Source of the DNA: Eledone cirrhosa
Taxonomy: Eukaryota
NCBI GenBank assembly: GCA_964016885.1
Contig: OZ024743.1
Span: 60,078,001 to 60,142,000 of the forward strand
DNA length: 64,000 bases
Direction of reading: 5' to 3'
A program made the position numbers and the translations under genes. This document shows, in pieces, positions 8,231-63,368 of the stretch. The number at the start of each line of letters is the position of its first letter. Position 1 is the first letter of the stretch. Below the pieces are notes generated by a model. It was given only the letters and a program-made list of their open reading frames with translations, ran no database searches and had not been told where the DNA came from.

Positions 8231-8273
8231 CTTCTATACAATAAATACATATATATATATATAAATAAATATA

Positions 8274-8314
<41 letters not shown>

Positions 8315-8316
<2 letters not shown>

Positions 8317-11300
8317 GTGTAAATATGATAATAATGATGGCTGCGCGTTGCAAATGGTGGTGCATATGAAAAAGTAAGTCCTTCATCAGTGACCCTCCAA
8401 CCGTCCCAGGCATTTAATCGCTTTAAGGGCCATATGCCTCAGGTTGGTGCGAACAACGGCTAAAAAAGTCGTTGGGACACGTAAATAAAGGGGACGTTAG
8501 GGTAACAAACAACATGGTTTAAGCAACGGAAAGTGAGAAGGAATAGACAAGTCCCAGATCTCTATGAATATAAACTCGGTGAAATCGTGAACAAGAGACA
8601 AAAGACCATCAAACCTGGTTGAAATGTGAGCAAGGAAGGAATTTCGCACCGGTCTAACGGGGGGGGGGAAGAAGAAGAAGAAGAAGAAGAAGAAGAAGAA
8701 GAAGAAGAAGAAGAAGAAGAAGAAGAAGAAGAAGAAGAAGAAGAAGAAGAAGAAGAAGAAGAAGAAGAAGAAGGGGTCTGGTCTACGAATTCGGTAAACA
8801 TAAGTTTTGTGAAGTCGCAGACGAAAGAGAGAGAGAGAAAAAAATTCCATACCAGCTTGACCAAGACCGCGCGAGAAAAGAATTACACACAGGTCAAACT
8901 TGAAGGAGGAGGAGGAAAGAGGAGGAGGAGAGGTAGTGACAGAGAATGAGTGAGTGAAAGTTGAGGAGGAGGCTAACAGAGAGAGAGACTGCTACAAAGG
9001 GTAAAAGGTACAAAGAACGAGAAAGGGTAAAAGGTACAAAGAACGAAACAGACGGATGGCAGCAGAAGAAAAATTATGTGTAAATATGATAATAATGATG
9101 GCTGCGCGTTGCAAATGGTGGTGCATATGAAAAAGTAAGTCCTTCATCAGTGACCCTCCAACCGTCCCAGGCATTTCATCGCTTTAAGGGCCATATGCCT
9201 CAGGTTGGTGCGAACAACGGCTAAAAAAGTCGTTGGGACACGTAAATAAAGGGGACGTTAGGGTAACAAACAACATGGTTTAAGCAACGGAAAGTGAGAA
9301 GGAATAGACAAGTCCCAGATCTCTATGAATATAAACTCGGTGAAATCGTGAACAAGAGACAAAAGACCATCAAACCTGGTTGAAATGTGAGCAAGGAAGG
9401 AATTTCGCACCGGTCTAACGGGGGGGGGGGAAGAAGAAGAAGAAGAAGAAGAAGAAGAAGAAGAAGAAGAAGAAGAAGAAGAAGAAGAAGAAGAAGAAGA
9501 AGAAGAAGAAGAAGAAGAAGAAGAAGAAGAAGAAGAAGAAGAAGAAGAAGAAGAAGAAGAAGAAGAAGGGGTCTGGTCTACGAATTCGGTAAACATAAGT
9601 TTTGTGAAGTCGCAGACGAAAGAGAGAGAGAGAAAAAAATTCCATACCAGCTTGACCAAGACCGCGCGAGAAAAGAATTACACACAGGTCAAACTTGAAG
9701 GAGGAGGAGGAAAGAGGAGGAGGAGAGGTAGTGACAGAGAATGAGTGAGTGAAAGTTGAGGAGGAGGCTAACAGAGAGAGAGACTGCTACAAAGGGTAAA
9801 AGGTACAAAGAACGAGAAAGGGTAAAAGGTACAAAGAACGAAACAGACGGATGGCAGCAGAAGAAAAATTATGTGTAAATATGATAATAATGATGGCTGC
9901 GCGTTGCAAATGGTGGTGCATATGAAAAAGTAAGTCCTTCATCAGTGACCCTCCAACCGTCCCAGGCATTTCATCGCTTTAAGGGCCATATGCCTCAGGT
10001 TGGTGCGAACAACGGCTAAAAAAGTCGTTGGGACACGTAAATAAAGGGGACGTTAGGGTAACAAACAACATGGTTTAAGCAACGGAAAGTGAGAAGAAAT
10101 AGACAAGTCCCAGATCTCTATGAATATAAACTCGGTGAAATCGTGAACAAGAGACAAAAGATCATCAAACCTGGTTGAAATGTGAGCAAGGGAGGAATTT
10201 CGCACAGGTCTAACGGGGGGGGGGGAAGAAGAAGAAGAAGAAGAAGAAGAAGAAGAAGAAGAAGAAGAAGAAGAAGAAGAAGAAGAAGAAGAAGAAGAAG
10301 AAGAAGAAGAAGAAGAAGAAGAAGAAGAAGAAGAAGAAGAAGAAGAAGAAGAAGAAGAAGAAGAAGAAGAAGAAGGGGTCTGGTCTACGAATTCGGTAAA
10401 CATAAGTTTTGTGAAGTCGCAGACGAAAGAGAGAGAGAGAAAAAAATTCCATACCAGCTTGACCAAGACCGCGCGAGAAAAGAATTACACACAGGTCAAA
10501 CTTGAAGGAGGAGGAGGAAAGAGGAGGAGGAGAGGTAGTGACAGAGAATGAGTGAGTGAAAGTTGAGGAGGAGGCTAACAGAGAGAGAGACTGCTAGAAA
10601 GGGTAAAAGGTACAAAGAACGAGAAAGGGTAAAAGGTACAAAGAACGAAACAGACGGGTGGCAGCAGAAGAAAAATTATGTGTAAATATGATAATAATGA
10701 TGGCTGCGCGTTGCAAATGGTGGTGCATATGAAAAAGTAAGTCCTTCATCAGTGACCCTCCAACCGTCCCAGGCATTTCATCGCTTTAAGGGCCATATGC
10801 CTCAGGTTGGTGCGAACAACGGCCGAAAAAGTCGTTGGGACACGTAAATAAAGGGGACGTTAGGGTAACAAACAACATGGTTTAAGCAACGGAAAGTGAG
10901 AAGAAATAGACAAGCCCCAGATCTCTATGAATATAAACTCGGTGAAATCGTGAACAAGAGACAAAAGACCATCAAACCTGGTTGAAATGTGAGCAAGGAA
11001 GGAATTTCGCACAGGTCTAACGGGTGGGAAGAAAAAGAAGAAGAAGAAGAAGAAGAAGAAGAAGAAGAAGAAGAAGAAGAAGAAGAAGAAGAAGAAGAAG
11101 AAGAAGAAGAAGAAGAAGAAGAAGAAGAAGAAGAAGAAGAAGAAGAAGAAGAAGAAGAAGGTCTGGTCTACGAATTCGGTAAACATAAGTTTTGTGAAGT
11201 CGCAGACGAAAGAGAGAGAGAGAAAAAAATTCCATACCAGCTTGACCAAGACCGCGCGAGAAAAGAATTACACACAGGTCAAACTTGAAGGAGGAGGAGA

Positions 11301-11553
11301 AAAGAGGAGGAGGAGAGGTAGTGACAGAGAATGAGTGAGTGAAAGTTGAGGAGGAGGCTAACAGAGAGAGAGACTGCTAGAAAGGGTAAAAGGTACAAAG
11401 AACGAGAAAGGGTAAAAGGTACAAAGAACGAAACAGACGGGTGGCAGCAGAAGAAAAATTATGTGTAAATATGATAATAATGATGGCTGCGCGTTGCAAA
11501 TGGTGGTGCATATGAAAAAGTAAGTCCTTCATCAGTGACCCTCCAACCGTCCC

Positions 11554-11555
<2 letters not shown>
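8315..11555. repeat. Tandem array of four ~760-810-bp units plus a 95-bp partial unit, each full unit with a long (GAA)n tract (family C)
   Basis: Unit start atgtgtaaatatgataataatg at ~8315, 9076, 9871, 10678 and 11461. Units are near-identical apart from microsatellite length; (TA)n on both sides. Confidence 0.95.
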
Positions 11556-11618
<63 letters not shown>

Positions 11619-11638
11619 TATATGCGTGTGTATGGAAG

Positions 11639-11716
<78 letters not shown>

Positions 11717-13269
11717 ATATTAATGAGTATAAATGAAGAAGTTGCAGCTGCAAGCAGGTAAATTCGCATCCGATTGAATTTCGAAGACTGTAACGAAGCA
11801 CTCAGTGATAAAATAATTTAAAAAATGCTACCCAGGGTGCACACAATAAGTTAGGAAAGAGTGACACAATGTATAATGAGACCAAACGCATGTTGCCACA
11901 TTAATACTACAACAACGAACATACAGACAGGTTAAAGACGAACATGATCGATACGTATTAACCGACAAATATCTTCGATAGGTTTCTATATATATAGTAA
12001 TAATTAGTACAACCTCAAAGTACATACTAGAAACTACGCATCGAGTGCTCATTTTGGTAAACCAACACTAAGTTGACGTTACATTACCTGTATATATATA
12101 TATATATATGAAAAAAGTTAATGGTGATGGTGTTGATAGTGGTAATACAAGAAAAGAAAGACAAAAAACTAAATGTAAAAATGAATGGATAGGTGTGAAA
12201 TGTTAAGCTCATAATTCATTTGAATGTCCTCAATAATATTTTAATCTGAAATACTGTGCATGTTTCTTTTATAGTATGACCATTTATTAACTGTGATGGT
12301 TGATGACTGTTATATAAGGTGTGGCTATTGTTGTAAACTATATATGTAGGGTTAGAAAGGGTTAGACAGGGTTGGTAAGAAAAGCTACAGAAAATGAAGT
12401 GTGAACATTGACTAGAAATAAGACCGTATTATGATCTGAATTTGGTAAAATAACTTGCTTATACAACTGTGAATAAACCTGTATGAGAGGAGAGATGACA
12501 TTGAAGACAAAGGTTAAGAGTAAGAGTTTTAGTAATACAAATAGAACTGTGTATCGGAATCAACACCAACAATAACAACAGTCCTAGTGGTCATTAGAAG
12601 TGGTATTTACAATGAATTTTTAGTGAATGGCTACAATAAGTGGTTTAGATGTCCAGATGCATAATGGAAGTCTTTATGGTTGCAATCGTATTAGTGTCGA
12701 CAATATCATAAATAACAACAACTGTGACTGCAGCAACATAACCAACAACACCTATGGTACCAAGGGATGGGGATCAGGATCTGGCACGTTGATGTTGATA
12801 GTGGGCATAAAAATAGATAAAGTAAAATAATAATAATTACGAGACAAGTAATTAATTTACTTACTAGGGGAAGGTGTCGGCATCAGTGACAACAGCACCA
12901 CCAACAAGCACAATTTGTGCTCAGTGGAGGTATTTTGGGTATTTAAAAGAAAATTGCAATCCCAACAGAAGTACCAAACACAAAACCATGACTGTAAACA
13001 TTATTCTGATTCACAAACAGAACAGCGATATTTGGAATATAGCCCCAAATAGCATCGGCCCCAAAACCAACATTTCGAAGAACAGAAGTGGGCCCATGTG
13101 GTCAGATCCAGCGGCAATAACACCCAGAGGAAGTATAACAGGGATGAGGGTGACGAGAATGAGGATCCCAGCGCAGGAGGTACCGGCAAAACCGACATCA
13201 ACACCCATTACAGTAAAAAACATAAGCACCCAGACTGACGAAAGCAAAGACAAAACAGAACCAGGTATC

Positions 13270-17839: not shown

Positions 17840-19292
<1,453 letters not shown>

Positions 19293-19419: not shown

Positions 19420-19471
<52 letters not shown>

Positions 19472-19714
19472 GTAAGTATGCATGTATACGTACATACATA
19501 TATGTATACAGACGTACAGTAGCATGCACATATATATATATATATACATATATACATACATACATATGCATACAGGTACACATACATATATGCACGTATC
19601 AGTTTAGCGGCGCTAACGTCGCTTTGTTCGTTTGTAAACAAACTGAACAGCCTGAATTTATGCCATACGGTGTTAAGGCAACCACGTCACCTTTTTGTTC
19701 AACACTGACACAGG

Positions 19715-19759
19715 AACGATGTACTAGTTTCAAGCTTGTTAGCTATCATCAGCACCGTT
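19715..19759 (-). ncRNA. Minimal type I hammerhead, family A
   Basis: aacggtg-CTGATGA-t-agct-aaca-agct-t-GAAA-ctag-TA-catcgtt, with palindromic ACTAGT at stem/loop III. Confidence 0.9.
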
Positions 19760-20184
19760 TACCCATCTGCCAGATAGTTGAACGTTAGAAAGTATATACT
19801 TTCCTTATGAAAATTAACGGCTGAGCAGCCTAATTTGCATATTGAGTGAGTTAAATCGGTCAGGCATACCGAAAACGATAAATTGAAACAAAATGAAAAC
19901 GAAATTTCATTTCTCACTCTTAGTATGGCACTTACTTAAATGTAAGTATGCATGTATGCGTACATACATATATGTATACAGACGTACAGTAGCATGCACA
20001 TATATATATATATATACATATATACATACATACATATGCATACAGGTACACATACATATATGCACGTATCAGTTTAGCGGCGCTAACGTCGCTTTGTTCG
20101 TTTGTAAACAAACTGAACAGCCTGAATTTATGCCATACGGTGTTAAGGCAACCACGTCACCTTTTTGTTCAACACTGACACAGG

Positions 20185-20229
20185 AACGATGTACTAGTTT
20201 CAAGCTTGTTAACTATCATCAGCACCGTT
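20185..20229 (-). ncRNA. Minimal type I hammerhead, family A
   Basis: Same motif; stem II variant agtt/agct keeps pairing through a U-G wobble. Confidence 0.88.
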
Positions 20230-21007
20230 TACCCATCTGCCAGATAGTTGAACGTTCGAAAGTATATACTTTCCTTATGAAAATTAACGGCTGAGCAGCC
20301 TAATTTGCATATTGAGTGAGTTAAATCGGTCAGGCATACCGAAAACGATAAATTGAAACAAAATGAAAACGAAATTTCATTTCTCACTCTTAGTATGGCA
20401 CTTACTTAAATGTAAGTATGCATGTATACGTACATACATATATGTATACAGACGTACAGTAGCATGCACATATATATATATATATACATACATACATATG
20501 CATACAGGTACACATACATATATGCACGTATCAGTTTAGCGGCGCTAACGTCGCTTTGTTCGTTTGTAAACAAACTGAACAGCCTGAATTTATGCCATAC
20601 GGTGTTAAGGCAACCACGTCACCTTTTTGTTCAACACTGACACAGGAACGATGTACTAGTTTCAAGCTTGTTAGCTATCAAAGCGACGTTAGCGCCGCTA
20701 AACTGATACGTGCATATATGTATGTGTACCTGTATGCATATGTATGTATGTATATATATATATATATGTGCATGCTACTGTACGTCTGTATACATATATG
20801 TATGTACGTATACATGCATACTTACATTTAAGTAAGTGCCATACTAAGAGTGAGAAATGAAATTTCGTTTTCATTTTGTTTCAATTTATCGTTTTCGGTA
20901 TGCCTGACCGATTTAACTCACTCAATATGCAAATTAGGCTGCTCAGCCGTTAATTTTCATAAGGAAAGTATATACTTTCGAACGTTCAACTATCTGGCAG
21001 ATGGGTA

Positions 21008-21052
21008 AACGGTGCTGATGATAGTTAACAAGCTTGAAACTAGTACATCGTT
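21008..21052 (+). ncRNA. Minimal type I hammerhead, family A
   Basis: aacggtgCTGATGAtagttaacaagcttGAAActagTAcatcgtt. Confidence 0.88.
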
Positions 21053-21477
21053 CCTGTGTCAGTGTTGAACAAAAAGGTGACGTGGTTGCCTTAACACCGT
21101 ATGGCATAAATTCAGGCTGTTCAGTTTGTTTACAAACGAACAAAGCGACGTTAGCGCCGCTAAACTGATACGTGCATATATGTATGTGTACCTGTATGCA
21201 TATGTATGTATGTATATATGTATATATATATATATATGTGCATGCTACTGTACGTCTGTATACATATATGTATGTACGTATACATGCATACTTACATTTA
21301 AGTAAGTGCCATACTAAGAGTGAGAAATGAAATTTCGTTTTCATTTTGTTTCAATTTATCGTTTTCGGTATGCCTGACCGATTTAACTCACTCAATATGC
21401 AAATTAGGCTGCTCAGCCGTTAATTTTCATAAGGAAAGTATATACTTTCGAACGTTCAACTATCTGGCAGATGGGTA

Positions 21478-21522
21478 AACGGTGCTGATGATAGCTAACA
21501 AGCTTGAAACTAGTACATCGTT
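21478..21522 (+). ncRNA. Minimal type I hammerhead, family A
   Basis: aacggtgCTGATGAtagctaacaagcttGAAActagTAcatcgtt. Confidence 0.9.
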
Positions 21523-21828
21523 CCTGTGTCAGTGTTGAACAAAAAGGTGACGTGGTTGCCTTAACACCGTATGGCATAAATTCAGGCTGTTCAGTTTGTT
21601 TACAAACGAACAAAGCGACGTTAGCGCCGCTAAACTGATACGTGCATATATGTATGTGTCCTGTATGCATATGTATGTATGTATGTATATATGTATATAT
21701 ATATATATATATGTGCATGCTACTGTACGTCTGTATACATATATGTATGTACGTATACATGCATACTTACATTTAAGTAAGTGCCATACTAAGAGTGAGA
21801 AATGAAATTTCGTTTTCATTTTGTTTCA

Positions 21829-21897
<69 letters not shown>

Positions 21898-25735: not shown

Positions 25736-26636
25736 ATGTGTGTATGTGTGTGTGTTTGTGTGCATGTGTGTATGTGTGTATGTGTATGTGTATGCAGGAT
25801 ATCCGTAGATGAAATGCTAAGGACGAAAATGCAAGTGAGATTATTGAGTACAATTACAATTTCATACACTGAACCTGTATGTGTGACGTTAGGTTTCGGT
25901 GTCCAGTTATGGCTAACCCTTTATCGTGTAGAAGCTGTTTCAATATTGGCCGCTTATCGGGGGCCAGGACTAAATTACGAAATAACCGTGAACCCATTAT
26001 ATGTGATTTTAATGCAGTGAAGAGATCGTCACAAGAACGAGGGATATTATTCCTGAATTCCGTACTTTTTAGTGATAGAAAATGTGAAAAGTGCGTATGT
26101 GGTATATGTGCATAACATACGTTATAAGATAAGTACCTAAAAAAATGATATACTTTAAAGAAGTTCGTTACAAATGGAGATTGTAGACTAATTTCCGTGT
26201 GCGCCCAAGGAAGGCTCCTCCACTATACGGTTGTGGCTATACATGAACCCCGAGACGTAAAGTTGCATGTGGATGTTAAGTGTATGAAATTTTAATTATA
26301 CTATATATATATATGGGAGGTGCGTGCGTGAATGTATGTTGATCTAGGTTTGCGGTGCGTGAAGGTTTAGGTTTTTGGTCGTGAATTCGATTCTGGCCGG
26401 TGAATTGTGGACTCGAGCAAGACATTCTATTGCATGCATCACAAGTCCTATCATCTTTTCGCTCACACTGCCACGCTGATGTTCCCTGAGAATTCTGTTA
26501 AATGTGCATGCGTCTTTTTAAATGAGCCCCCATTTGCACGTTAATGTCACACACACACATACATATATATGTATATGTGCACCTATGTGTGTGTGAGTGT
26601 GTGTCTATGTTTGTATAACATTATGAAGATGTATGC

Positions 26637-27019
26637 GGGTGGTGGATTGGCAGTATCGGTAGAGGGTCGGACGCCATGCTTTCCAGCATAGTTACGTCCC
26701 TTTACGATCTGAGTTCAAATCCCGCCGAGGTTGACTTTGCCTTTCATCCTTACGGGGTCGATAAAATAAAGTACCAGTAATGCACTGAGTAATTGCTGGC
26801 CTTGTGCCTAAAGTAGAAACAATTATGAAGATGTATGCGGTGGATTGGCAGTATCGGTAGAGGGTCGGACGCCATGCTTTCCAGTATAGTTACGTCCCTT
26901 TACGATCTGAGTTCAAATCCCGCCGAGGTTGACTTTGCCTTTCATCCTTACGGGGTCGATAAAATAAAGTACCAGTAATGCACTGGGTAATTGCTGGCAT
27001 TGTGCCTAAAGTAGAAACA
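26637..27019 (+). mobile_element. Tandem pair of tRNA-derived SINEs (Meta/MESC-type domain)
   Basis: Copies at 26637-26820 and 26839-27019, each with A/B boxes and gcctttcatccttacggggtcgataaaataaagtaccag. The 17-bp sequence attatgaagatgtatgc occurs at 26620, 26822 and 27020. Confidence 0.92.
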
Positions 27020-28329
27020 ATTATGAAGATGTATGCAGAACACAGCATATATAAAACCATTTAATCTAAATATGTTATAGTTATAGAATTAGAAGTCTCT
27101 CAGTGAACAGATTGGAGAGTAAACACACTTTTTTTTATTATTCCATATATACGTTTAGAAATCATGCTATAACATATATGAGTTTCAGAGAAGGATGTCA
27201 CAACATCATAAGTTAACTAAATTCATGATTCTATCTACAGCATAATTTTATATTGATCACTGTTTTTGCCAAGTACTGTGCAAAATTTAACATTAAAGGT
27301 CAGGATAATTTGCTCGCATAACCTGCATTCATTTTGCAGTGCAACTAATTAAATACAACATATTTCTGCAGATCGAAGCATATATTGGATGATGTGAAAC
27401 AGATTTAATGCAGATGTAACGATAGTTTTTGTTGGCTTTTTTTTTTTGCATCAAGAAACCTTGCTATGAAAAGTCTAATTTTTATCACAGATTAATATAT
27501 TTGACGTTTTCTGTATTATCAAAAATTAAAGACATAATATCGCAGATGTTCATGCACAACTTTACTGTAAAAAATATGTTTTCTTTAGATACATAAAATT
27601 TGTATTTTTTTTTTCTTTTTTGAGATAGTGAGGAAAATTATCAGAACAGCCTGATGGTAGATTTAGGGTTACCCTAATATGTTCAGCAATATTCTGAAAT
27701 ACTGACAGAGAAGGCACTGTGAACATTGTTTACGCCATTATAGCATAAACTAGTAATAATGCACACTGTAATTAATGTGTCCAATTAGGGGCTTAGTGAG
27801 GTTGAAAGTGGGAAAACAAGCAGTGAAGAAATTTGGGGAAAAACATAAATATTCGATCAAAAGATCAAGGAAATTAGTCGATCGTCGTATCGGACTAACA
27901 AGGTTATCTTTCCCTCATTCTTTTCATTACTGAGAAAAGACTCAGTGCTCTTTCTGTGACAAGAGTTTGGAACTTAGAAGACATAAAACCAGAACAGATA
28001 CCGCAAAATACCCCGCATGACTCTTTTATAATTCTGCTCATCCACCGCCCCAGGATTTTTATTTTATAGATTATGGAATGATGAAATGCAAAGGTAATCT
28101 CGGTGGGATTTGAACTCTCAACCCAAACCGACACGCTAACAATTCTGCAGATTCGATGCCCAGCAGAATAGTTGTCTAAATTAATAACGTAACGAGAAGT
28201 CTTCAACAATTCATTTGTAAGTCCCGTGTAGGTGAAATTTTGTTGAATCCCTTATTGAAGCAGTGGCTATTCTTCCAAAAATCTATTGTCAATCACACAT
28301 AATCAAAATAGTTTCACTGGTAGTGATGA

Positions 28330-40327: not shown

Positions 40328-40867
40328 GGAAAAAATGAAACGATATTTCATTTCCCACTCTTAGTACGGCTGTTACTTAAATATAAGTATGTACACGTAC
40401 ATACATATATGCATACCGACGTACAGTAGTATGTATATATATATATACATACATGCACACATATATATATGTACGTATGGATTCACCGAACATTTATTAT
40501 AATGCTCGGTGTGTTTGTAAACAAACATCCCGTATTAAGCCGTAGTGTCTAGCAACCACCGTTGCTCGTTTGTTCAACACTGACAAAGGAACGCTGTACT
40601 AGTTTCAAGCTTGTTAGCTATCGTCAGCAACGTATACCTTCCTGCCAGATTGTTGAACGTATATACTTATCTTATGCATATTAACGGCTGAGTAGCCCAA
40701 TTTGCATATCGAGTGGGTTATCGTTTTCGGTGCACCCGGCCGATTAACCCACTCGATATGCAAATTGGGCTACTCAGCCGTTAATATGCATAAGGTAAGT
40801 ATATACGTTCAACAATCTGGCAGGAAGGTATACGTTGCTGACGATAGCTAACAAGCTTGAAACTAGT
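40325..40867. mobile_element. Diverged family A copy with an inverted terminal segment
   Basis: Unit 40325-40720, then its reverse complement over ~40720-40867. HHRs at 40591-40633 (minus) and 40832-40867 (plus, truncated). Confidence 0.88.
40591..40633 (-). ncRNA. Minimal type I hammerhead, family A variant
   Basis: acgttg-CTGACGA-tagctaacaagctt-GAAA-ctag-TA-cagcgt. Confidence 0.88.
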
Positions 40868-41099
40868 TTTTCCTTTTTCTTCCCTTTTCCCTTCCGTTAC
40901 TATTTTTTCCTCTCTCTTCCTTTTTTTCCCAATAATTTCCATGAGTTATTGACGCCTTGGGGTGGGATATATTGTCTTTAATGCGTTGAAATATCCAGGA
41001 CCTCCAGCAGACAACAATGAAGGAAACTTTTCTCCTGTTCGTGCTTTCCTCTTATTTATAAGTAGACCTTATCCACCAGCAACACAGCCCCTGCTTATT

Positions 41100-41160
<61 letters not shown>

Positions 41161-47568: not shown

Positions 47569-48190
47569 AAATATGAAAACATGGCCTGCTGCGTGGTTTT
47601 CTCTGTATCTCTCACTTCCTTTTACCCCCTCTACCAGTGACTCTCTCTTTTAGCCTCTTACTCACACTTTCACTCACTCACTCTCTGCTACTCCCTCTCC
47701 TACTTCCTCCCGTTTGACCTGTGCGAGATTCTTTCCTCACTCACACATCGACCAGGTCGGATGGTCTTTATTCTCTCTCGTCTACGATTTAACAGAACAT
47801 ATGTTCATCGAATTCAGGGACTTGACTCCTTCTTCCTCCCGTTTGACCTGTGCGAAATTCTTTCCTTACTCACATTTCGACCAGGTTGGATGGTCTTAAT
47901 TCTCTCTCGTCCACGATTTCACAGAACTTATGTTCATCGATTTCAGGGACTTGACTCCTTCTTCCTCACTTTTCGTGGCATTACCATCTTTGTTTGTTTA
48001 CTGTCTCGCTCGTCCCCCCTATTTACGTGTCCCAACGACTTTCTTTAGCCGTTGCTCGCACCAACCAGAGGTATATGGTCTTTAAAGCGATGAAATACGA
48101 ATGAAGGCTGGAAGATCAGTGATGAAGGACTAAATCTATTCATATGTAACCCATTTGCAACCACGCAGCACGCCATGTTTTCATATTTTA
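47567..48190. mobile_element. Diverged family C copy in opposite orientation, bounded by ~31-bp inverted termini
   Basis: aaaatatgaaaacatggcctgctgcgtggtt / aaccacgcagcacgccatgttttcatatttt. The interior matches the reverse complement of the 8315-11555 unit (tttacgtgtcccaacgactt, caccaacc.gagg.atatgg), with an internal ~128-bp duplication. Confidence 0.8.
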
Positions 48191-50128: not shown

Positions 50129-53100
50129 GACGACCTACGTAGTAAATCGTATCATCGTGAGCTCCGCAAAGGTTTGTTGTTTTCATTTGTTTAAAATTGC
50201 CATTTATGGAAAGTTTTTTTATTGTTAACTGTATATAAGTGCACATACATTGATTTCTGAAAAGGACACTCAAAAAGATTTAGGCCTTGAGCCTAAAATT
50301 TGAACTATTATAATTATTAAAAAAAAACTTTCTTTGAAAAAAACATGGACGACTCACAGCCACACGAAGCTGACAGCCTTCCTCACAAACTAACACCTCA
50401 CACCGAGACCATAATTGTAAATATTACTACGTTTGCCAACATTAAAAATATAAGCAGTACATATTTTAAATTTGTCTCAGGCAGACATTCATTAACCGCC
50501 ATTACCAATGACTGCATGTGTGAAAGCCGCCACCACCACCAACACTACCGCGACAACAGAAACGAAAGAAAAAAATAAATTAACCCGTGATATCGAAATG
50601 AATTCAACCAAAATGAACTCTTCCACACCGAACACCACTGACGCCACCACCACCACAACTGATACTAAAATTAATAATAACAAAAATAACGATAACAACA
50701 ACACCAACAAAGACATTAAGAATACCACCCTGAGTTTTGCCAGAGTAGCAAAACAGTGCGAAGCATTTCAGGTAACTCAGGAGGAATTAGAAGAAGCCAA
50801 AGAAATGGTAAAGAAAGATGGATACAGGGTCAGCCAAGATAATCTAAATAGCGAAAGAAAAGCAGGAGAACTGGTCTGGATCTGGGATGGAGCTCCTGAT
50901 CCAAGCGGACCAAAAAAGCATTGAGGAGATCCCAGAGGTAATAGACCTCACTGACGGCAGCCACCTCACCGTAATTGTCGAGGGCAGAAGGCCTAGGTGT
51001 GTCGTTTGAGGTGAAGGAACCCACCTAAGGGCTTTCTGCCCTCAGGCTAAAAGGTTGAGGCCACCTCTCCTACCCACCCCAGTGACTAAACCATCAACAC
51101 CACCAGCAGCAGAGATGGCAGCAACAAATGTAGCAGCAACAACAGAAGAAACTGTAACAGCAACAACCCCAGCAACAGTAGCAAAACCAACACCACCACC
51201 ACCCAACGCGCCAGAACTAGCACCCTCGCCAACACCATCAACAACGCCACAACCAAAACTAACGCCTGTGGAGGATTTTCCACTCCCCGGCCTATCACAA
51301 CTGGAGACAGATTGTGAAGACGAGGAGTGGGAAACGGTATCAGGAAAAATGAAAAAAGAAACCAAAAAAGAAAAAAATTCTCTTCCGTACCCCTCCAAAA
51401 ACAAAATACAGAGGGAAACAAATAAGCTATCAAACAAAAAAGTTAGGACAGATATGCCACCATCCACACCAGCATCACCAGCCCCATCACCCCAAACACC
51501 AACACGATCACCATCATTAACCCCAAAACCACAATCAACTACACCACAAAAGTCACCAAAAAGCGAAACAGAAACAAACTCACAACAAACGCAAACAAAA
51601 CAAAACAACCAAAACGATACACACTACACAGCATTAAATTTGAACAACAACCAATTATTACACTACATCCAACACAACACCAGCATCACAGAAAAAGACT
51701 ACACAACAACCCAAACTTCACACCACCTCCACACATACAAATCACTCGCATCGCACAGAAAACATACATGACACTAAAACAAAACTTCCCCAAAGGCATC
51801 GGAGACTTCCGACAAGCACTCTACAGGAGGATTTATAAGGACATCCTTCCTGAGGAGGTCACAAGCAGTGAAAATGATGGAGAAAGCGTCCTTCCTCTAC
51901 GAGAAGTAGGGTAAGTGGTCTTTCCCATCTTTTCCACACTATTTCAACATGAACTCACTCAGAATAGACAGCTTAAATACGCGTGGCTTGGGGTCGTCAT
52001 GGAAGCAGGGCCACCTGCTCAACGACCTCAGGCCACTAAACATAGATGTAGTGGCCATCAGCGAGACCAGAATCTCCGAAGCATTAGCCTTCGCACCGAT
52101 CTTCGCCGGCTACGATGTGTACGCATCTCCCAGCCGTCCGGGATCGGAGGGGGGAGTTGCTGTGCTTTTTCGGAGAGGTTTGGGTCTTACCATACGAGCC
52201 ATCTTCCTGGACCCAGAAAGTAAGTTGGTGGTGCTGGACGTGACCAGCGGAGACGGACAAGCTTTCAGGTTAGTGGCCGTCTATGTCCCGACAGGAACAG
52301 GGAGGCCTGATTTCTTCCGGCCTCTGGAGACCTTTCTTGGAACGTCCCGCTCTTTAGTGTTAGTGGGCGACTGGAACGGAATATTAGATGCACGCTATAC
52401 TGTGTGGGATTAGTGGATAGGAGAGGAGGGTGCAAGAGTCTCACCAACCTGCTCAGGCGTTTTCAACTGTCTGACAGGTAACGATTGGATTTCCCGAATG
52501 TGCCAATGTGGACTTGGACAAATCGCATAGTGTCATCCAGATCATATCTAGATATAGTATTTTGGGGGAAATAGATAGGTCTAGCATAGGTTGTCCACAA
52601 TTCAAGATAGTCAGCTACACGGACCACAAATTCGTGATGTGTGTGCTTGACTTAGATAGGCTTCATAGACGAGGACCCGGCTACTGGAAGCTAAACGCGT
52701 CCTTACCAGCGCGCAAGGCCTACAGATACCGGATTAGCGAACTAGTTAAGCGGGCGTTGACGGGGGCCATCGTCAACAACAAGTGGTGGTTTGCTCTGAA
52801 AAGAGCGATTAGAATAGAGTCCATTAGGTTTAGTAAGTCTTTAGTAATAGAGAAGAATAGAGCAGAGGGAGAACTAGTTAGAAAATTAGACGAGGCGCTT
52901 AGCAAAGGCATCGCGACCGACGTACTTGCGGCGAAATTGGCCCTTGACCAATTCTTCAATGCAAAGTACGAAGGCTGCGTTATCAGAGCTAGGGTGCGTG
53001 CTCTCAGATACGAAGGGGCGAAAGCCGTTCAATGGGCCCGAGTGGCGGAGGCGCGTCGTGGCATCAAAGCCACCATCCGGTCTTTGGTGGACCACGACGG

Positions 53101-55511
53101 GCGCATGCTACTCGATCCCGGGAAAATGTGTGAAGCTTTTCAGCGACACTTCGCTCAAATGTTCGGGGGCAGCGGCGGGCCGGATCGCGGGATGGACTTT
53201 AGTGTCTAGATCCACGGACTGCCGCGGCTCTCGGCCCCTGAGGCGGAGTGTTGCGAAAAGCCGATAACAGCCGCTGAAGTACGGGAGGCAATGACTGGCT
53301 GCACAAGGGGTAAATCGCCTGGTTTGGATGGTCTGCCCTATGAACTTTACGTACAAATGCCAGACTTGTTCGGAGTCCTCTTGGCGGACGTCTTCTGGGA
53401 CTAGCAACAGAACGGGAGAATTCCCAGCTCTGTGAGCCAAGGAGCGGTGGCGCTGCTGTGAAAGGATCCGAACAAGGCGGATAACATACATAATTTTAGG
53501 CCCATAACTCTGCTAAACACAGAGTTCAAGATTTTGGCCGAGGTGCTAGCAAAGAGGCTGGCGCTTGTCGTTGGTGGTTGTTCGGGAGAGGCGCAGACAT
53601 GCGCCATTCTCGACAGATCTATCAACGACAACCTCCACCTCATGTGAAACATCGTAGAGAGGGTAGCTAGTAACCTGGCACGGGTGGGTCCTTGATCAAT
53701 TTAGATCAGTCGAAAGCTTTCGATAGGGTAGACCATAGTTACCTAGCGGCAGTCCTGAGAGCGGCTGGCTTCGGGTCCGTCTTCAGAGGCTGGATCGCTG
53801 CCATGCACAGCGATATGTGGTGAGAGTGAACGGTCACTACGTATTGACTCTCGAGCCATTACTGCACAAACTGGAGACGTCGAGGGGGGTCCCGCGCAAT
53901 ACTAGGATGCGGAAGATCCGTGTCAGCATATGCGGACGATGTCACCGTAGTGGTGTCGAACGCCAAACACATCGAGGCGATTGGCACTACACTGGGAGAT
54001 TACGAAGCGGTGACAGGAATAATAATCAACCGGGAAAAGTCAGCGGGTCTGCAGCTCGGCACCTGGAGAGGCAGGTCCATGCCGTCCAACAGCGTCGTCG
54101 GGCGCTGGACGGACGGACCGGTTAAATTGCTAGGGGGTCTGGTTTGGTCCGGACCTCCAGACGGACAAAAACTGGGACGAGGTGACGAGCAGGGTGGCTT
54201 CTCTCACCCAGAAATGGGCGGAGAGGAAGCTATCCCTGAAAGGTCGAGCGGAGGTGGCTAACGCATACATCGCGTCCGTCATCTACTACCGCCTAACCGT
54301 CGTACCTTGTCCTAAGCCCCGCCTGACTGCGCTGGAGCGTTTGCTCTTTCGCTTTTTGTGGAAGGGACGCGCTCCGATGGTCAGGCGGTCCATCTGCTGT
54401 CAACACCCGCTACGTAGAGGGCTGGGCATGCCGTGGCTGATGATGCGCAGACACGCGGTCAGGCTACGATATCTCCACCTCTTCCTCGACGGTGATCAGG
54501 TGTGGTCGCCGTTTGCTAGACACGTCTTTCCCCAGCTCGTCTCCTTGACGAAGCTGCAGTCGCAGGTCAAGCGAAGACCGAGAGGGAACGCTTGGAGACT
54601 GGAATGTCTTCAGGCGCTCACAGCCCTCGGCCATTTGGGCAATATGATCGGTGGAAACTCCACCTTGGCGTTCTATAGAGGATTAGTGGAGGGGAAGAGC
54701 GACGATGTACTTGGAGAAACTCTAAGCGTCGACGAAAATCAACTAGCCATTCCCTTCGGACGGACCTTTGGGCCGAGGCCTATGGACAACTTCCAGAAAT
54801 CTCTGGCCTGGCAGAGCTACCTGGGTGGTTTGCCAGTTCGGGATAAACTCTACAGGCATGGAGGTGCCGTCAGCCGGGCATGTCCGAGATGCGCGCAGGG
54901 CGACGAAACCGTCCTGCACGCACTCGTCCAGTGTCCGAGCATTGTGACTTGTGGGGTTATGTCGAACACCTGCTGTCACGTGTAGGACGGATCCGGCTAT
55001 CAACTGAGTCCATCGTGAGGATTTCCCCACCCCCTTCCTTTAGCCGGGAAGGGCAGGCAGTTTTTATCTGTCTGGTGGCGAAAGAGATAGTATGGTGGAC
55101 ACGTTTGAAAGGGCTGAAGACGAGCACTTACCTCTTCGGTGATGCCCTGATTAACTTTTTCAAATTTCATTTGAAAAGGAAAATCAGGGTAGAGAGTGAA
55201 GTGCTCTCTTCCCAGCATTTTGTTGAAATATGGGTGAGAGAAGCAAGTATGGCCCGAGTGAATGAGCCTACTCTGAGTATGTGTCTGTAAATTAAAGGTG
55301 CAAAACTGGGAGAGGGCACTTGCCCTGGTGATCAGGGTCACTGTGGTCTTTTAATGGGCTTTCTCCACAAATGTCTCTCGGAATTTTTCTTTGTTATTTT
55401 ATTACATCCTCTGTTTTTTTTACACGCAGAAATGCCCATTTGTACCGTCCTGTATTGTCCTGTACTGTCCTTAATGTTTACTTTATGTAAACCCTTTTGG
55501 TTAATAAAGAA

Positions 55512-57760: not shown

Positions 57761-57861
57761 ATTTGTATCAATGATATTATAGACGTCATCAAACACAGAA
57801 CAATATGAATTTTCGCAGATGATTCCTAGCTACAGAAGGTAATCAACAATGTAAACAAATT

Positions 57862-58264
57862 CCAGGGATTGTCCGGCCTTCTCCTCTTTGCACCGGTCGC
57901 CGTCGAGACCTCAGGCGTACTTGGACCCCGTACTGCCGAGCTCCTCTGCAAAACCGGAGCGTTGGTGGCCCGTCTGAGCAGGGAGTCTCGCGAGGTTGGG
58001 TGGCTGTTGCCGAGGATGTCATTGGCAACGGTCCGCGGGAATGCTTTTGCCGTCTTGTCCGCGGAGTGAAGTACTTCTCCCTTCATGCCCTAGACCCAAA
58101 GCCCAGTCACCCTCTCCCTTCACCCCTCCCCTCTCTTCTGCGACACCAGAGTTCTTGCCATCCTCTCCCCTTCACGGTCTTCTCTTTCTTTCTCTCTTTT
58201 TCTCTCTATATTTCCCTATTCGTTCTTCCCTTTTGCATCCCTTTTTTATTATTGCTATCATTAT
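57862..58264 (+). mobile_element. 3' fragment of a CRE-like RLE LINE
   Basis: FAPVAVETSGVLG...RMSLATVRGNAFAVL*, a typical CRE-type C-terminus, then a pyrimidine-rich UTR and a (TTA)-like tail. Confidence 0.7.
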
Positions 58265-61200
58265 GTGACAGCGATCTCAGCACCACCAGCAGGACCAGTA
58301 GCAGCAGCAATAGTGGTGCTGCTGAAAAAGGGACCACTTCTTTTGCAGGTTTCGCCCGAAATTTCGAAACAGAGGAGGAGATAGCAGTCGCAAGGTCCAT
58401 GGTGACAAGAAACGCCAATAGAGTTTCCTTGAAACATCCACCCGATTTTTTCAAGGCCCAGCTGCTACGGACGGTAACTTACCGCACCGTAAGCAAAATG
58501 TCACATCGGGTGGAGAGAGCCACGGAGGCTAACATCAAAAAACCCTTGGGGTGCGTCTGGGCACGCAAAACCGACATCACCGAAGCAGAAAGTACGCCAC
58601 AGTAGACGTACTTTTCGCAATACCCCAAGAAGCGAAGTCTCACTCTTTGGAAACTCTAAAGAATGAGGAGATAGTCTTGGTGCCCTCCTACTTCGGGCAG
58701 AAAATTGTGAGGGTCAAAGTGACCCAGGTCACACCCGACGTGCCCATTCCTTGGCTGGCTGCGTCTGTCCTTGCTGGAATCGAGAACAGGACGACCATGC
58801 TGCAAGTAGAGAACATAGGGAGAGAGAACTCGTTAGGTATAGGCATGCAAATGCTTATACAAACTGACCAGGAATGTGTCGACGCTATCCCCGTTATCAT
58901 AGACATCGAGGAAGGACTCCAACCCCCTATAAGCGTGGAAGAAGACGGCCAATATGTTATCTCTGTGGGTCAAAGGGTCACCTCAGGGCCTTTTGCCCGC
59001 AGAAGACAGTGAAGAAGAAGGCTCCTCTCTTTCCAATACCTGGTCCGCTGCTACCAGGAGTAGGGCAGGCAACCAACGTAGAAGCCCCTTCCACGGTGAA
59101 TAGGAGAGAACGTCCGTGACACACGTACCAAGGCCACGAAGAACTAAAGCAGCAGCATCAGTGGCGACAACGTCAGTAGCTACATTTGCAGTAACTGCAA
59201 TAGCAACAAAATCGCCGGAGATGCTCACTACCACCACTAACAGCCGTGGATCCCATACCTCACCCAGACGCCACGGAATCCGACATGGAGTCTGAGGCGG
59301 GAGTGAAGTGGCAAACGTTCTGCCACAAAATACAAAAAAAAACTAAAAAACCCTTAGCTTCAACCTTCTAAAGCGAAGGCACACAAAGAGGGGTAAAGGC
59401 TGCAAGGAGACTTGCAGCAACACCACCATCAACACCACAACACCACAAGTACCACGAATCAACACCACAAGCACCACCGCCAACAAAAACCACACCACCA
59501 CCAGCGTCACCAAAAACACCAACAACGCAAACAAAACAAAACACACACACCAAACAGCAACAAGAAGAAAACAGCAACAAAATCACCCATCCTCCCAAAA
59601 AGTACACATCCATAAACCTGACAATAAAGAACTCATACAATATATAAAGCAGCACACAGACATCACAGAAAACAACTACTACACCCCACCAACACCGAGT
59701 ACTCTGCCGACAAACATAAGCATCACTGATATCAAAATAGAACAGTACAAACTTTTAAAACAAAAATTCCCCAACGCAGTTGGAGACTTCAGAGGGTCAG
59801 TTACCAAGAGGATATACACTGACATCCTCTTGGAAACCCCCATGACCAGTCAAAGGGACGGTTCTACTGTCCCTTCAACACACGATCAAGTTAAGTGACC
59901 CCTTCTCATAGCATCGTTTCTCATCCAGCATGGCCGTACTTAGAATAGGCAGTATAAATACACGTGGCCTGGGGTCATCTCGGAAGCAGGGTCACCTGCT
60001 CAACGACCTCAGGTCACTAAACATAGATGTGGTGGCCATCAGCGAGACCAGAATCTCCGAAGCACGAGCCTTCGCACCGATGCTCGGTGGCTACGATGTA
60101 TACGCATCTCCCAGCCGTTGAGGATCGGGGGATGGGGTTGCCGCCCTTTTTCGGAGAGGCTTGGATCTCGCCATACGGGCCATTATTATGGACCCAGAAA
60201 GTAAGTCGGTGGTGCTGGACGTGACTGGCAGCGAAGGCAATGCTTTCAGGCTAGTGGCCGTCTACGCCCCAACTGGGGCAGGACGACCAGATTTCTTCAG
60301 ACGTCTAGTGACCTTTCTTGGAATGTCCCGCTCTCTGGTGTTAGTGGGCGACTGGAACGGTATCTTGGATACACGCTGGGATTGTGTGGGGCTAGTGGAT
60401 AGGTGAGGAGGGTGCAAGAGTCTCACCAACCTGCTCAGATGTTTTGAACTGTCTGATAGGTATCGACTGGATCACCTGAATGTGCCAATGTATACATGGA
60501 CAAACCGCATCGGGTCATCCAGATCGTATCTCGATAGGGTATTCTGCAGAAAACTAGATAAGGCTAGTATGAGTTGTCCACAATTTAAAATAGTCGACTG
60601 CACAGACAACAAATGTGTGATCTGAGATCGACATAGACAAACTTCATAGACGAGGACCCGGTGATTAGAAACTGAACGCGTCTTTCCTGGCGCACAAAGC
60701 CTGCAGAGACCGGATTAGCGTATTGGTTGAGCGGGCGTTGACGGGAGCGGTCGTCAACAAAGCCACAATTCGGTCTTTATCTGACAAAAACGGGCGCGCA
60801 TTGCTCGAACCCGAGCAGATGTGTGAGGCTTTTCAGCAGCACTTTGCTGAATTCTTCGGGAGCAGCGGCGGGCCGGATCGGGGAATGGACTTCAGTGCAT
60901 ACCTCGACGAACTGCCGCGGCTCTCGACGACCGCAGCAGAGTCTGGCGAAAAGACAATAACAACCGGTGAAATATGGGAAGAAGCTAGCTAACTGCATGA
61001 GGGTTAAATTGCCAGGTTTGGAGGGTCTGCCCTACGAGCTTTATGCATTTATGTCAGACCTGTTCAGTAACCTCTTGCCAGACGTCTACTGCAACTGAGA
61101 GCAGAACGGGAACATTCCCAGTTTTGTGAGACAGGGAGCGGTGGCGCTGCTGAGAAAAGACCCAAACAAGGGGGATGTTATCGATAACTTCAGGCCCATA

Positions 61201-63368
61201 ACCCTGCTAAACGCAGAGTTCAAGATTTTGGCTAAGGTGTTAGCAACGAGGTTGGCGCTTGTCGTCGTGAGAGAGATCAGATATGCGCCATTCCGGACAC
61301 GACAACCTCCACCTCATGCGATACCTCCTAGAGAGGGTGGTTATGGAACCTGGCACGAGTGGGGCCCTGATCAACTTGGAACAATCCAAAGCATTCGATA
61401 GAGTCGACCATCGGTACCTGGCGGCGGTCCTCGAGGCAGCTTATTTCGGGCCAGTTTTCAGGGGTTGTATCGCTGCGATGTACAGCGATATCTGCTCAGT
61501 TGAGAGGGTGAACTATCACCTGTCGCAGCCGTTCATCATCATGCGCTCGGTCCGCCTGGGTTGTCCCTTCTCGTCCCTCTTGTACGTATTGGCTCTCAAG
61601 CCGTTACTGCACAAACTGGATGCGATGAGAGGCGTCCCACGCGAACTTGGATGCGGGAAATCCGAGTCGGCTTACGCCGACGACATCACCATTGGGGTGT
61701 CGAGCACCAGAAACGTCCTGATGCTCGGCACCGCTCTCAAGGAATACGAAGCGGTGACAGGAGCAAAGATAAACCAGGAAATGTCGGTGGGCTTGCAGCT
61801 CGGCACCTGGAGAGGCAAGTCCATGCCTTCCGACAGCGTTGTGGGGCGTTGGACTGACGGACCTGTTAAATTACTCGTGGTCTGTTTCTGACCGGACCTC
61901 CAGATGGAGAAAATCTGGAGCGAGGTGACGAGCAGGGTGGTCTTCCTCACCCAGAAATCGACCGAGAGGAAGCTGTCCCTGAAAGGCCGGGCAGAGGTGG
62001 CGAATGCGTACATCGCATCCGTCATCTGCTACCGCCTCACCGACGTCCCTTGCCTCGACACTACTCTGACCAAAATGGAGCGCCTCCTCTTCCGCTTTTT
62101 TTGCAAGGGACGCGCTCCCAAGGTCAGACGATCCATCTGCTGTCAACACCCGTTGCGTGGAGGACTGGGTTTGCCATGGCTGATGATGCCCAAATATGCG
62201 CTGAGACTGCGACACCTCTGGTGCTTCCTTGACGGTGAACATGTGTGGTCGCCGTTAGCCAGGCACGTTCTCCCACAGCTCGTCTCCTTGACGGAGCTGC
62301 AGTCCTGGGTCAGGAAAAGACCGAGGGATAGCGCTTGGAAACTGGAATGTCTCCAGGCACTCACCGCCCTCTGCCAGCTGGGCACCAGTATCGTGGAACA
62401 TTCACCTCGGCGTACTATAGAAGACTAGTGGAGTGGAAGAGCGACGACGTTCTCGGAGAGATCCTGGGCGTCGAAGAAGATCAGCTGTTTGCTTTCTTCC
62501 GTAGAACATTCAGCCCAGGGCCTATGGATAACATCCAAAATTCCCTGGCCTGGCAGTGCTACCGGGAAGCGTTGCCGGTTCGAGATAACTCTACAGGCAC
62601 AGAAGTGCCGTCAGCCGAGCCTGTCCGAGATGCGCGCATAGCGACGAAACTGTAGTGCACGCACTCGTTCAGTGGCCAAGCATTGCTGACTTGTGGAGTT
62701 ATGTCGAACAGTTGCTGTCGCGTGTAGGACTGATACGGTTATCGACTTAGTCCATTGTGAATATGTTCTCGCCCTCTTCCTTCGAGGGGAAAAGGGCTGG
62801 CGGGTTTCATCTGCCTCGTGGCCATAGCGAAAGAGATTGTGTGGTGGACAAGGTTGAAAGGGTTAAAGACAGATACTTTCCTCTTCCCGAATCCCCAATT
62901 AACTTTTTTAAGTTTCACTTGAAGAGGAAAATAAGCGTGGAGAGGCAAGTGCTGCTTTGTAGCAAGTTTGTTGAAAGGTTGGTGAATGTAGCGAATGGTC
63001 CGAAAGAACGGGACCGCTCTGAATATACGCCTTTATTTTGAGAAATGGAAACACTTTAGAGAGGGCGCTTGCCCTGGTGGTCAGGGTGGCCATGGTCTTT
63101 TGTTTGGTTTTCGCCACGAGTAACCTTCGGAGGTTTCCCCCTGTTGGGAATTTTTAATTGTTTCAATTTTCATTCTTATTGTTTATATATATATATATGT
63201 TTCTATGTCATTTTTTTTCTTTTCTTATATAAATAATAAAAATCTTTACACGCACAAAACCCACATCGTACCGTCCTGTACCGTTCTGAGTCATCTGTAA
63301 TGTTTTTCATGATGTCAGCCCTTGTGGCCAATAAAGAAATCATTATTATTATTACTATTATAATTATT
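58265..63368 (+). mobile_element. Decayed Tx1/L1-group LINE (copy 2), 5'-truncated
   Basis: ORF1 with CYLCGSKGHLRAFC knuckle; ORF2 from 59930 to ~63040 homologous to copy 1 (SINTRGL, NFRPITLLN, AYADD); aataaa at ~63330 and an (ATT)n tail. Confidence 0.92.

Follow-up and report, generated by a model that had tools for sequence, protein, structure and literature searches.

A conserved, probably hammerhead-like RNA domain in a young, dispersed repeat family of Eledone cirrhosa

We have analysed a stretch of 64,000 nucleotides (the window) from the 3.0-Gb genome of Eledone cirrhosa (C4:60078001-60142000; contig OZ024743.1 of assembly GCA_964016885.1), and focussed on a tandem array near its beginning, the features of which are collected in Table 1. 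The array had been pointed out as a (GAA)n tandem array in a first-pass annotation made from the sequence alone, and it is real: four full units of 761-807 bp are followed by a partial one of 92 bp. The units are 95.6-100% identical (blastn, window) and differ chiefly in an internal (GAA)35-50 run. The whole is one insertion, in (TA)n, of a young, abundant and dispersed non-coding family, of which three diverged copies are also found in the window. In our view the array probably arose when the minus-strand RNA of a non-coding retroelement was copied into (TA)n; near its 3' end this RNA has a conserved domain of 101 nt that would fold as a hammerhead with its blocks in the order S-G-C and, by analogy with known hammerheads, is predicted to cleave itself between positions 9194 and 9193.

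Table 1. Features of the array, of its RNA domain and of the related copies. Positions are those of the window; helix and core names are given in the RNA sense, and a slash between two positions marks a predicted cut.
Feature	Position	Strand	Basis or remark
Tandem array, 4 full units and 92-bp partial unit	8318..11555	-	blastn of unit against window; sequence
Full units	8318-9078, 9079-9873, 9874-10680, 10681-11463	-	blastn
Partial unit, 92 bp	11464-11555	-	keeps only block C and neighbouring strands
(GAA)46 within unit, (UUC)n in RNA sense	9430..9568		Tandem Repeats Finder (TRF)
Equivalent (GAA)n runs in other units	8668-8773, 10225-10375, 11028-11160		TRF
(AT)38 microsatellite adjoining fixed array end	8241..8316		TRF; target and/or tail
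(AT)83 microsatellite adjoining truncated array end	11556..11720		TRF
Hammerhead-like domain, 101 nt, reference unit	9139..9239	-	alignments, RNAalifold
Same domain in other units	8378-8478 (G12 changed to U), 9934-10034, 10741-10841	-	
Helix H4	GUCC 9236..9239 with GGAC 9139-9142	-	A1 columns 109-112 with 209-212; RNAalifold
Hairpin H1, 7 bp	9215..9235	-	A1 columns 113-119 with 129-135; double changes in 4/7 pairs
Pseudoknot PK2	UCGC 9210..9213 with GCGA 9179-9182	-	A1 columns 137-141 with 167-171
Helix H2	CCAACC 9203..9208 with GGUUGG 9158-9163	-	A1 columns 142-147 with 187-193; double changes in 5/6 pairs
Consensus kink-turn, bulged strand	9164..9169 (bulge 9167-9169, G-A 9165-9166, 3b 9164); facing U-G-A 9200-9202	-	
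Helix H3 (putative stem III)	GGCAU 9195..9199 (16.5-16.1) with AUGCC 9170-9174 (15.1-15.5)	-	A1 columns 151-155 with 176-180
Pseudoknot PK1 (putative stem I)	UGGCCCU 9187..9193 (1.1-1.7) with AGGGUCA 9151-9157 (2.7-2.1)	-	A1 columns 157-163 with 194-200
U11.1, then G12 A13 A14	9175..9178	-	sequence
CUGAUGA (C3-A9), directly 3' of stem I strand 2.1	9144..9150	-	
Predicted cleavage site, A (H17, 9194) / U (1.1, 9193)	9193..9194	-	structural analogy with hammerheads
Equivalent predicted cuts in other units	8433/8432, 9989/9988, 10796/10795	-	
Diverged single copy, family G, between (TA)n runs	17843..18325	-	domain 17900-17999
Old decayed copy, family X, ends at (TA)n	40925..41101	+	core decayed to CAAUGA
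Single copy, family B, between (TA)n runs	47569..48190	+	domain 48029-48130; private C3-to-G change

A first look at the whole genome with unit positions 1-347 gave at least 2297 candidates. The 40 matches scored over the whole of these positions were 98-100% identical and came from many chromosomes. Besides the family of the array (family A), at least 2216 candidates were found for the type represented by the copy at 48 kb (family B). A 16-mer common to the diverged copies has 7221 matches in the genome, against a single one for the reversed control, and from these matches further families (C to H) could be sampled without bias. A DNA search with the 17.9-kb copy as query gave no match at all, the copy itself included. 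The motif GAAAU-N22-CUGAUGA occurs 14,653 times genome-wide versus 44 for its reversed control (ca. 330-fold). With up to one mismatch it is found 6 times in the window, where shuffles predict 0.17 (ca. 35-fold), while the heptamer CTGATGA alone is barely over chance there (17 versus 8.6 expected).

Copy ends were read from the 30 best-scoring loci (ca. 21 distinct places), a sample biased towards copies that retain positions 1-347. One end of the arrays is fixed, at unit position 1-3 or, in a few arrays, at 47, and (TA)n adjoins all 16 of the outer fixed ends examined. The other end is variable: the 17 non-inverted ones fall at positions 50, 59, 71, 92, 226, 373, 436, 557, 561, 568, 568, 571, 652, 720, 747, 749 and ca. 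795, with (TA)n adjoining 14 of them. At four places (L010, L018, L019 and L025) an inverted partial copy is joined head-to-head, its outer end being at position 47 or 3. Family B copies show this same pattern of fixed, scattered and inverted ends. From the fixed end, the random truncation opposite to it, the inversions resembling twin priming and the (TA)n target we infer target-primed reverse transcription of a minus-strand RNA. By the end pattern of the other copies, and by the excess of G-U over A-C cells given below, 8318 would be the fixed 3' end of the array and 11555 its 5'-truncated end, and the RNA would finish in ...CAUAU(UA)n. A (TA)n bias, 5' truncation, partial tandems and an adjacent inverted truncated copy are hallmarks of Penelope/Naiad-style insertion; the first (strong), the second (heavy) and the other two are all described in the cited passages on the Naiad group of Penelope-like elements (PLEs; Craig et al. 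2021, PMC8557442). As a separate observation, (TA)n microsatellites are extremely dense in the window and in all fetched loci, with dozens of runs per 10-kb region around PLE copies.

The fold was derived from alignments of family members in the RNA sense. Alignment A1 contains 38 sequences picked with patterns containing GAAAU, A2 is a rebalanced set of 35 picked with GAAAU...NUGANGN patterns, and A3 (32 sequences, again picked with GAAAU patterns) adds 21 members from the old X families. On A1, RNAalifold unaided gave four nested helices (H4, H1, H2 and H3) with double changes in 11 of 22 pairs, to which two pseudoknots (PK1 and PK2) and one closing pair were added by inspection. The resulting six-helix structure has 95.0% of its cells paired in A1 (87.8% in shuffles) and double changes in 17 of 30 pairs; its score was reached by none of 500 shuffles, and slid controls were paired at 28-51%. 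Values were similar for A2 (93.8% paired, double changes again in 17/30 pairs) and for A3 (91.8% versus 79.1%, with a covariation score of 0.441 versus 0.200). PK1 alone is paired at 89.1%, versus 81.4% in shuffles, with double changes in five of its seven pairs and, once more, 0/500 shuffles reaching the score. G-U cells outnumber A-C cells in A1 (62 versus 17), so that the folded strand is the minus strand.

Individual helices changed in ways that preserve pairing. H3 has double changes in two of five pairs, and in family X3 every pair of H2 is replaced with complementarity kept. Within PK2, columns 137-140 pair with 168-171 and A141 faces A167 unpaired; a C-G pair becomes U-A in 10 of the 38 sequences and U-A becomes A-U in X families. 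H4 reads UGUCC/GGACA, UUUUCC/GGAAAA or UUCCC/GGGAA in X families when compared by hand. In other words, the alignments support six helices by covariation, that of H4 coming from the X families only and by hand. Between H2 and H3 the sequence pattern, read by eye, fits a consensus kink-turn (k-turn): G149 and A150 lie opposite a 3-nt bulge and the G184 and A185 that come after it, and these four letters, in the order given, are kept in 37, 37, 37 and 38 of 38 sequences. The k-turn position 2n is U in families X2 to X4.

The letters of a hammerhead core stand at the places this structure leaves for them. H3 closes at an invariant U155-A176 pair (U16.1-A15.1; UA in 38/38), after which come one nucleotide and then PK1. 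At that nucleotide (H17, column 156) 30 of the 38 sequences have A, the other 8 have C and none has G, the triplet being AUA or AUC. G173 A174 A175 directly precede A176, and the PK2 strand GCGA sits just 5' of U11.1-G12. CUGAUGA (columns 201-207) follows the PK1 strand 194-200 without a spacer, then comes one purine, and then the GGAC strand of H4. The full list of core elements (16.1, H17, stem I, G12-A14, 15.1, C3-A9 and 10.x) is thus present with the correct polarity, including CUGANGA between stem strands, GAA with A15.1-U16.1, a non-G H17 and covarying stems I and III. In the terms of Eckert et al. (2023; PMC10085705), who defined blocks S, G and C in the passages cited, the order is S-G-C (columns 151-163, 172-180 and 194-212). 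By this structure cleavage is predicted at AUA/U, or AUC/U in one family, which obeys the NUH rule. The first-pass annotation had proposed a permuted, non-canonical hammerhead-like motif or other new structured RNA on the minus strand, and in this general form the proposal is borne out, as CUGAUGA and GAAA do lie at core positions between covarying helices.

The heptamer C3-A9 is unaltered in 34 of the 38 sequences, and of the four exceptions two depart from it at N7 alone. At the subfamily level no position but N7 varies: most families have U there, family D has C and family X2 has A. This is the sole free position of the hammerhead core. GAAA is kept in 53 of 57 copies of families A and B that were anchored on H1 rather than on the core. 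Among the four window copies found by homology all keep GAAAU, the one at 40.9 kb has no CUGAUGA, and in the one at 48 kb C3 is changed to G. Our initial reading had been that CTGATGA and GAAA co-occurred by chance and that family B carried GUGAUGA; it was dropped. GUGAUGA is not a trait of family B, because the G is private to the 48-kb copy and the other copies have CUGAUGA. As an observation on the array itself, its first unit has the core G12 changed to U (8412-8418, GAUUAAAU; GAUGAAAU in the other units), and this unit is therefore expected to be inactive if the motif is a ribozyme.

If the domain acts as a hammerhead, PK1 would be its stem I and H3 its stem III, and the k-turn with H2 would connect the distal ends of these two stems. 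A k-turn in a helical arm plays a comparable part in the S-adenosylmethionine-I (SAM-I) riboswitch, where it lets the apical loop pair with a strand beside the base of the arm. This likeness is architectural only, involving no relation of sequence or function, and it makes H2, the k-turn, H3 and PK1 geometrically plausible together. A four-way junction with hairpin H1 would take the place of stem II, since the two upstream strands flanking H1 take the 10.x strand and the strand before G12: a bridge, GUCC-hairpin H1-UCGC, would pair on one side with GGAC, which follows A9 after one purine, and on the other with GCGA, and H4 would serve as the distal portion of stem II. Transcripts, whether multimeric or unit-length, would cut themselves; the cut RNAs would probably be closed into circles, which a Naiad-type Penelope-like reverse transcriptase would then copy over and over. 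With the nicked (TA)n target as primer and the AUAU sites of the RNA (at unit positions 1-8 and 47-51) as starting points, this copying would yield tandem arrays with random 5' truncation. We see about an even chance that this full scheme is right, that is, that the domain is an active hammerhead with a wiring new to print (S-G-C, a four-way junction for stem II, and a k-turn that ties stem III to stem I), that it is the long-missing ribozyme of Naiads and of the non-coding repeats parasitic on them, and that it gives circularisable unit RNAs for rolling-circle reverse transcription into (TA)n.

A number of results weigh against the hammerhead reading. GAAAU was part of the patterns by which A1 and A3 were selected, and GAAAU plus NUGANGN of those used for A2, so that the invariance of these letters is partly by construction. 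The shuffle control ignores the kinship of related sequences, a weakness from which the slid controls are free. In the main families H4 does not vary, so that its support comes down to the hand comparison of old X families. Position 10.1 is A in families A and B. Block G is interrupted and the 11.x strand is unpaired with 10.x, a departure from every described hammerhead, type SGC included. No Rfam family reached its gathering score in the whole window, no Rfam ribozyme model matched the array or a 182-nt sequence at E<=10 on either strand, and none matched nine family loci at E<=0.1. Single-sequence folds are no more stable than those of shuffles (z = -1.16 and -0.79). Finally, genome-wide counts of (TA)n junctions show no enrichment of copy ends at the predicted cut: the counts of adjoining (TA)n are 135 in the column-157 region (control 31), 103 at a comparison site (control 2) and 307 at the column-172 site (control 79). 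This absence of enrichment is compatible with templates that are circular or multimeric, and also with a ribozyme that is inactive.

The last of these sites had come to our notice separately. Three 5'-truncated or inverted copies (loci L128, L135 and L139) break directly 5' of (A)UGAAAU, and a hotspot of copy ends was suspected at this point (column 171/172). The count there is only about twice that at two comparison points and the idea of a hotspot was given up; the break point may be a preferred microhomology or a stop of the reverse transcriptase.

To the same unfavourable side belongs the search for an autonomous partner, which brought none to light in this genome. The genome holds more than 10,000 candidates with a GIY-YIG domain. 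Among the 30 top loci, all 26 with a readable open reading frame (ORF) have the endonuclease at the C-terminus, and so do 6/6 loci with a long PLE ORF, but no similarity to the unit was detected in any of these 30 or six loci. No PLE ORF was seen in eight regions upstream of old-family copies, and Pfam searches of 27, and then 29, upstream ORFs gave no PLE either. Among ORFs upstream of motif copies only an unrelated reverse transcriptase of LINE (long interspersed nuclear element) type was identified, and a homology search with one ORF yielded nothing. With up to one mismatch allowed, the genome contains no match to a 20-mer of the tail published for the octopus Naiad. For the record, the PLEs with C-terminal endonuclease that were examined end ca. 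230 bp past the stop codon, beside (TA)n or (CA)n runs.

The published Naiads give a more favourable picture. In the cited passages they are said to 'lack canonical HHR' (hammerhead ribozyme; PMC8557442), and the metadata table in the supplement lists cephalopod Naiads with '(TA)n' and both Naiad_Ovul and Naiad_Esco with 'HHR_half_core'. That supplement also gives consensus sequences for Naiad_Obim and Naiad_Ovul, and at their 3' ends the same S-G-C layout is seen by eye, with quite different helix letters. The order along these tails is a 16.x strand, A, a stem I strand, a strand paired in the junction, C-GAAA, a 15.x strand, a bulge and GA, an H2 strand, the other stem I strand and CUGAUGA. 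Mobilisation of the Eledone cirrhosa family in the Naiad manner is therefore a well-motivated proposal.

The same tails bear on the best of the alternatives, which is that the fold is real and derived from a hammerhead that has lost cleavage, and now serves as a 3' module by which a Naiad-type reverse transcriptase recognises its template, as do the 3' stem-loops in stringent pairs of LINEs and short interspersed nuclear elements (SINEs). Families that otherwise diverge are best conserved in this domain, which lies no more than ca. 160 nt from the 3' end of the RNA, the same module is found at the tail of the published Naiad consensus sequences, stem II is irregular, and the predicted cut shows no excess of copy ends, all of which such a module would accommodate. 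However, a pure protein-binding module gives no reason to retain C3, G5, A6, G8, A9, G12, A13, A14, A15.1-U16.1 and a non-G at 17 while only N7 drifts. We regard the loss of cleavage as unlikely, though deserving to be kept in mind, and recognition and cleavage are roles that do not exclude each other.

It is considerably less probable that the element acts at the level of DNA, for example as a TA-targeting miniature inverted-repeat transposable element (MITE) or as a Helitron-like rolling-circle element amplified as a satellite, with hairpins that function in DNA. Such a view would draw on the insertion in TA repeats, on the 26-nt complementary termini of the 48-kb family B copy, which resemble terminal inverted repeats, and on the tandem multimers with one fixed end, which recall one-ended rolling-circle transposition. 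Nevertheless, a fixed end with scattered truncation is found in both families, the head-to-head partial copies resemble twin priming, the excess of G-U over A-C cells is on one strand only, and pseudoknots and k-turn are features of RNA. The MITE and Helitron ideas were dropped because of the polarity of truncation and the inverted arms.

The specific model of the first-pass annotation, with a type II-like hammerhead, a CUG triplet, a ggac..gtc hairpin as stem I, a 9-nt insertion in stem II and a cut ca. 3 nt from 11555, seems to us very improbable. The strings on which it was built are in the sequence, on the minus strand at 9125-9196 and, as variants, in the copies at 17.9 and 48.1 kb. The C-G to U-A change that it took from the 17.9-kb copy as compensatory is also real (columns 186-197: UA in 26, CG in 6 and other in 6 of 38 sequences), but the column is better explained by the 7-bp pseudoknot helix PK1. 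Over the 38-sequence alignment its pairing scheme holds in 80.6% of cells against 80.9% in shuffles, with a double change in 1 of 13 pairs. The loop of the hairpin is the 3' strand of the covarying H2, and the letters of its stem belong to the G-A pairs of the k-turn and to PK1. The model has no stem III, and the G that it puts at position 17 violates the NUH rule, a difficulty that the annotation had acknowledged and that does not arise at the site implied by the structure, 24 nt further 5' in the RNA. The block order is S-G-C and not the G-S-C of type II, and no insertion in stem II is needed. As for the end of the array, unit position 92 does fall 2-3 nt from the cut proposed then, but it is one of 17 scattered ends. 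Position 11555 is thus a truncation point like the others, unrelated to any cut. That the array is a plain satellite in which CTGATGA and GAAA met by chance, with no selected structure, is a negligible prospect: the heptamer alone is near chance in the window and Rfam finds no match, but the combined motif exceeds its expectation many times over, in the window and genome-wide, and six helices covary (H4 by hand comparison only).

Several other elements of the window deserve mention. The termini of the family B copy (47569-47600 and 48160-48190) are complementary over ca. 26 nt (ATATGAAAACATGGC.TGCTGCGTGG and its reverse complement), which would give a long hairpin across the unit junction if the RNA were tandem or circular; most of this complementarity is gone from family A. 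A near-perfect inverted repeat with arms of ca. 120 bp (40600-40860) stands immediately upstream of the old copy of family X. Two head-to-head arrays of a 470-bp unit, ca. 2.5 copies each, occupy 19467-20680 (-) and 20679-21834 (+), have CTGATGA in each unit, and give sub-threshold matches to the Rfam model Hammerhead_HH9 (18.5 bits, E 0.36) at 19704-19766 (-) and 21471-21533 (+); this unit looks like a hammerhead retrozyme of canonical order. A 198-bp unit repeated 2.1 times at 26620-27036, with a tRNA-like 3' half (…GAGTTCAAATCCCGCCGAGG…), is probably a tRNA-derived SINE, and the same sequence flanks family copies at L010 and L023. Broken remains of LINE-type retrotransposons lie at 51010-55290 (+) and 57823-62428 (+), where Pfam recognises Exo_endo_phos (51910-52413), RVT_1 with zf-RVT (53848-54985) and a second RVT_1 (61271-61891).

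What gives the domain its wider interest is that ribozyme permutations other than circular ones have been reported once, from environmental RNA of unknown hosts, with no type-SGC or type-CSG example from the genome of a known organism in the cited passages (PMC10085705). A related wiring in more than 10,000 retroelement copies of an animal would, if true, place rearranged ribozymes in cellular genomes. It would also explain the seeming absence of a hammerhead from Naiad elements, and would mean that a whole branch of hammerheads escapes the standard covariance models. In practical terms, the domain is a defined RNA of ca. 101-120 nt with which to probe how far the hammerhead core tolerates rewiring, and the fixed AUAU start points, tandem units and inverted arms make the spread of retrozymes by circular RNA and rolling circles testable.

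Compared with known systems, the domain has neither the circular C-G-S order nor the model match of hammerhead types I, II and III (RF00163, RF02276, RF00008, HH9 and HH10). Its closest counterparts are the type-SGC hammerheads (HRIMA-1 and variants) described by Eckert et al. (2023), which come from metatranscriptomes and, in the cited passages (PMC10085705), cleave in vitro at the analogous site; according to the same passages none of the RNAs of that work is placed in the genome of a known organism, except for one type-GCS candidate in a bacterium. Shared with type SGC are the order S (16.x-H17-1.x), G (GAAA-15.x) and C (2.x-CUGAnGA-10.x), the interleaving of stems I and III as a pseudoknot and the retention of all core letters, and the linker from stem I to the strand before GAAA is of similar length (3-4 nt here, 'typically three' there). 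Unlike in type SGC, the blocks are interrupted: between the strands adjacent to GAAA and to CUGANGA only U172-R208 can pair. The strand 5' of G12 (columns 167-171) pairs instead with an upstream junction strand (137-141, PK2), and the 10.x strand (209-212) with a second one (109-112, H4). Stem III is extended by the k-turn and H2, the 3' strand of which runs directly into stem I. The carrier is a genomic retroelement of an animal with more than 10,000 copies, and its cleavage is a prediction. In a search of the full-text literature, non-circularly permuted hammerheads appeared only in Eckert et al., and none was placed in an animal genome or retrotransposon, as judged from titles and abstracts.

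Set beside the Naiads, as these are described in the cited passages (PMC8557442), the family has the same (TA)n bias, 5' truncation, partial tandems, inverted truncated copy and want of a canonical hammerhead, but unlike them the element in the window is devoid of an ORF and so non-autonomous, and the searches described above turned up no Naiad with this tail in the genome. Along similar lines, the units differ from those of metazoan retrozymes with type I hammerheads in their greater length (ca. 500-800 bp), in the internal microsatellite, and in a candidate hammerhead that is not of type I and is missed by Rfam models. With the non-long-terminal-repeat retrozymes of metazoans, as presented in the parts of the reports cited (Cervera & de la Pena 2020, PMC7229834; Li, Clavereau & Pollet 2026 preprint), the family nevertheless shares the condition of dispersed, non-coding tandem repeats with a hammerhead core, and for these a Penelope-like mobilisation by way of circular RNA has been proposed.

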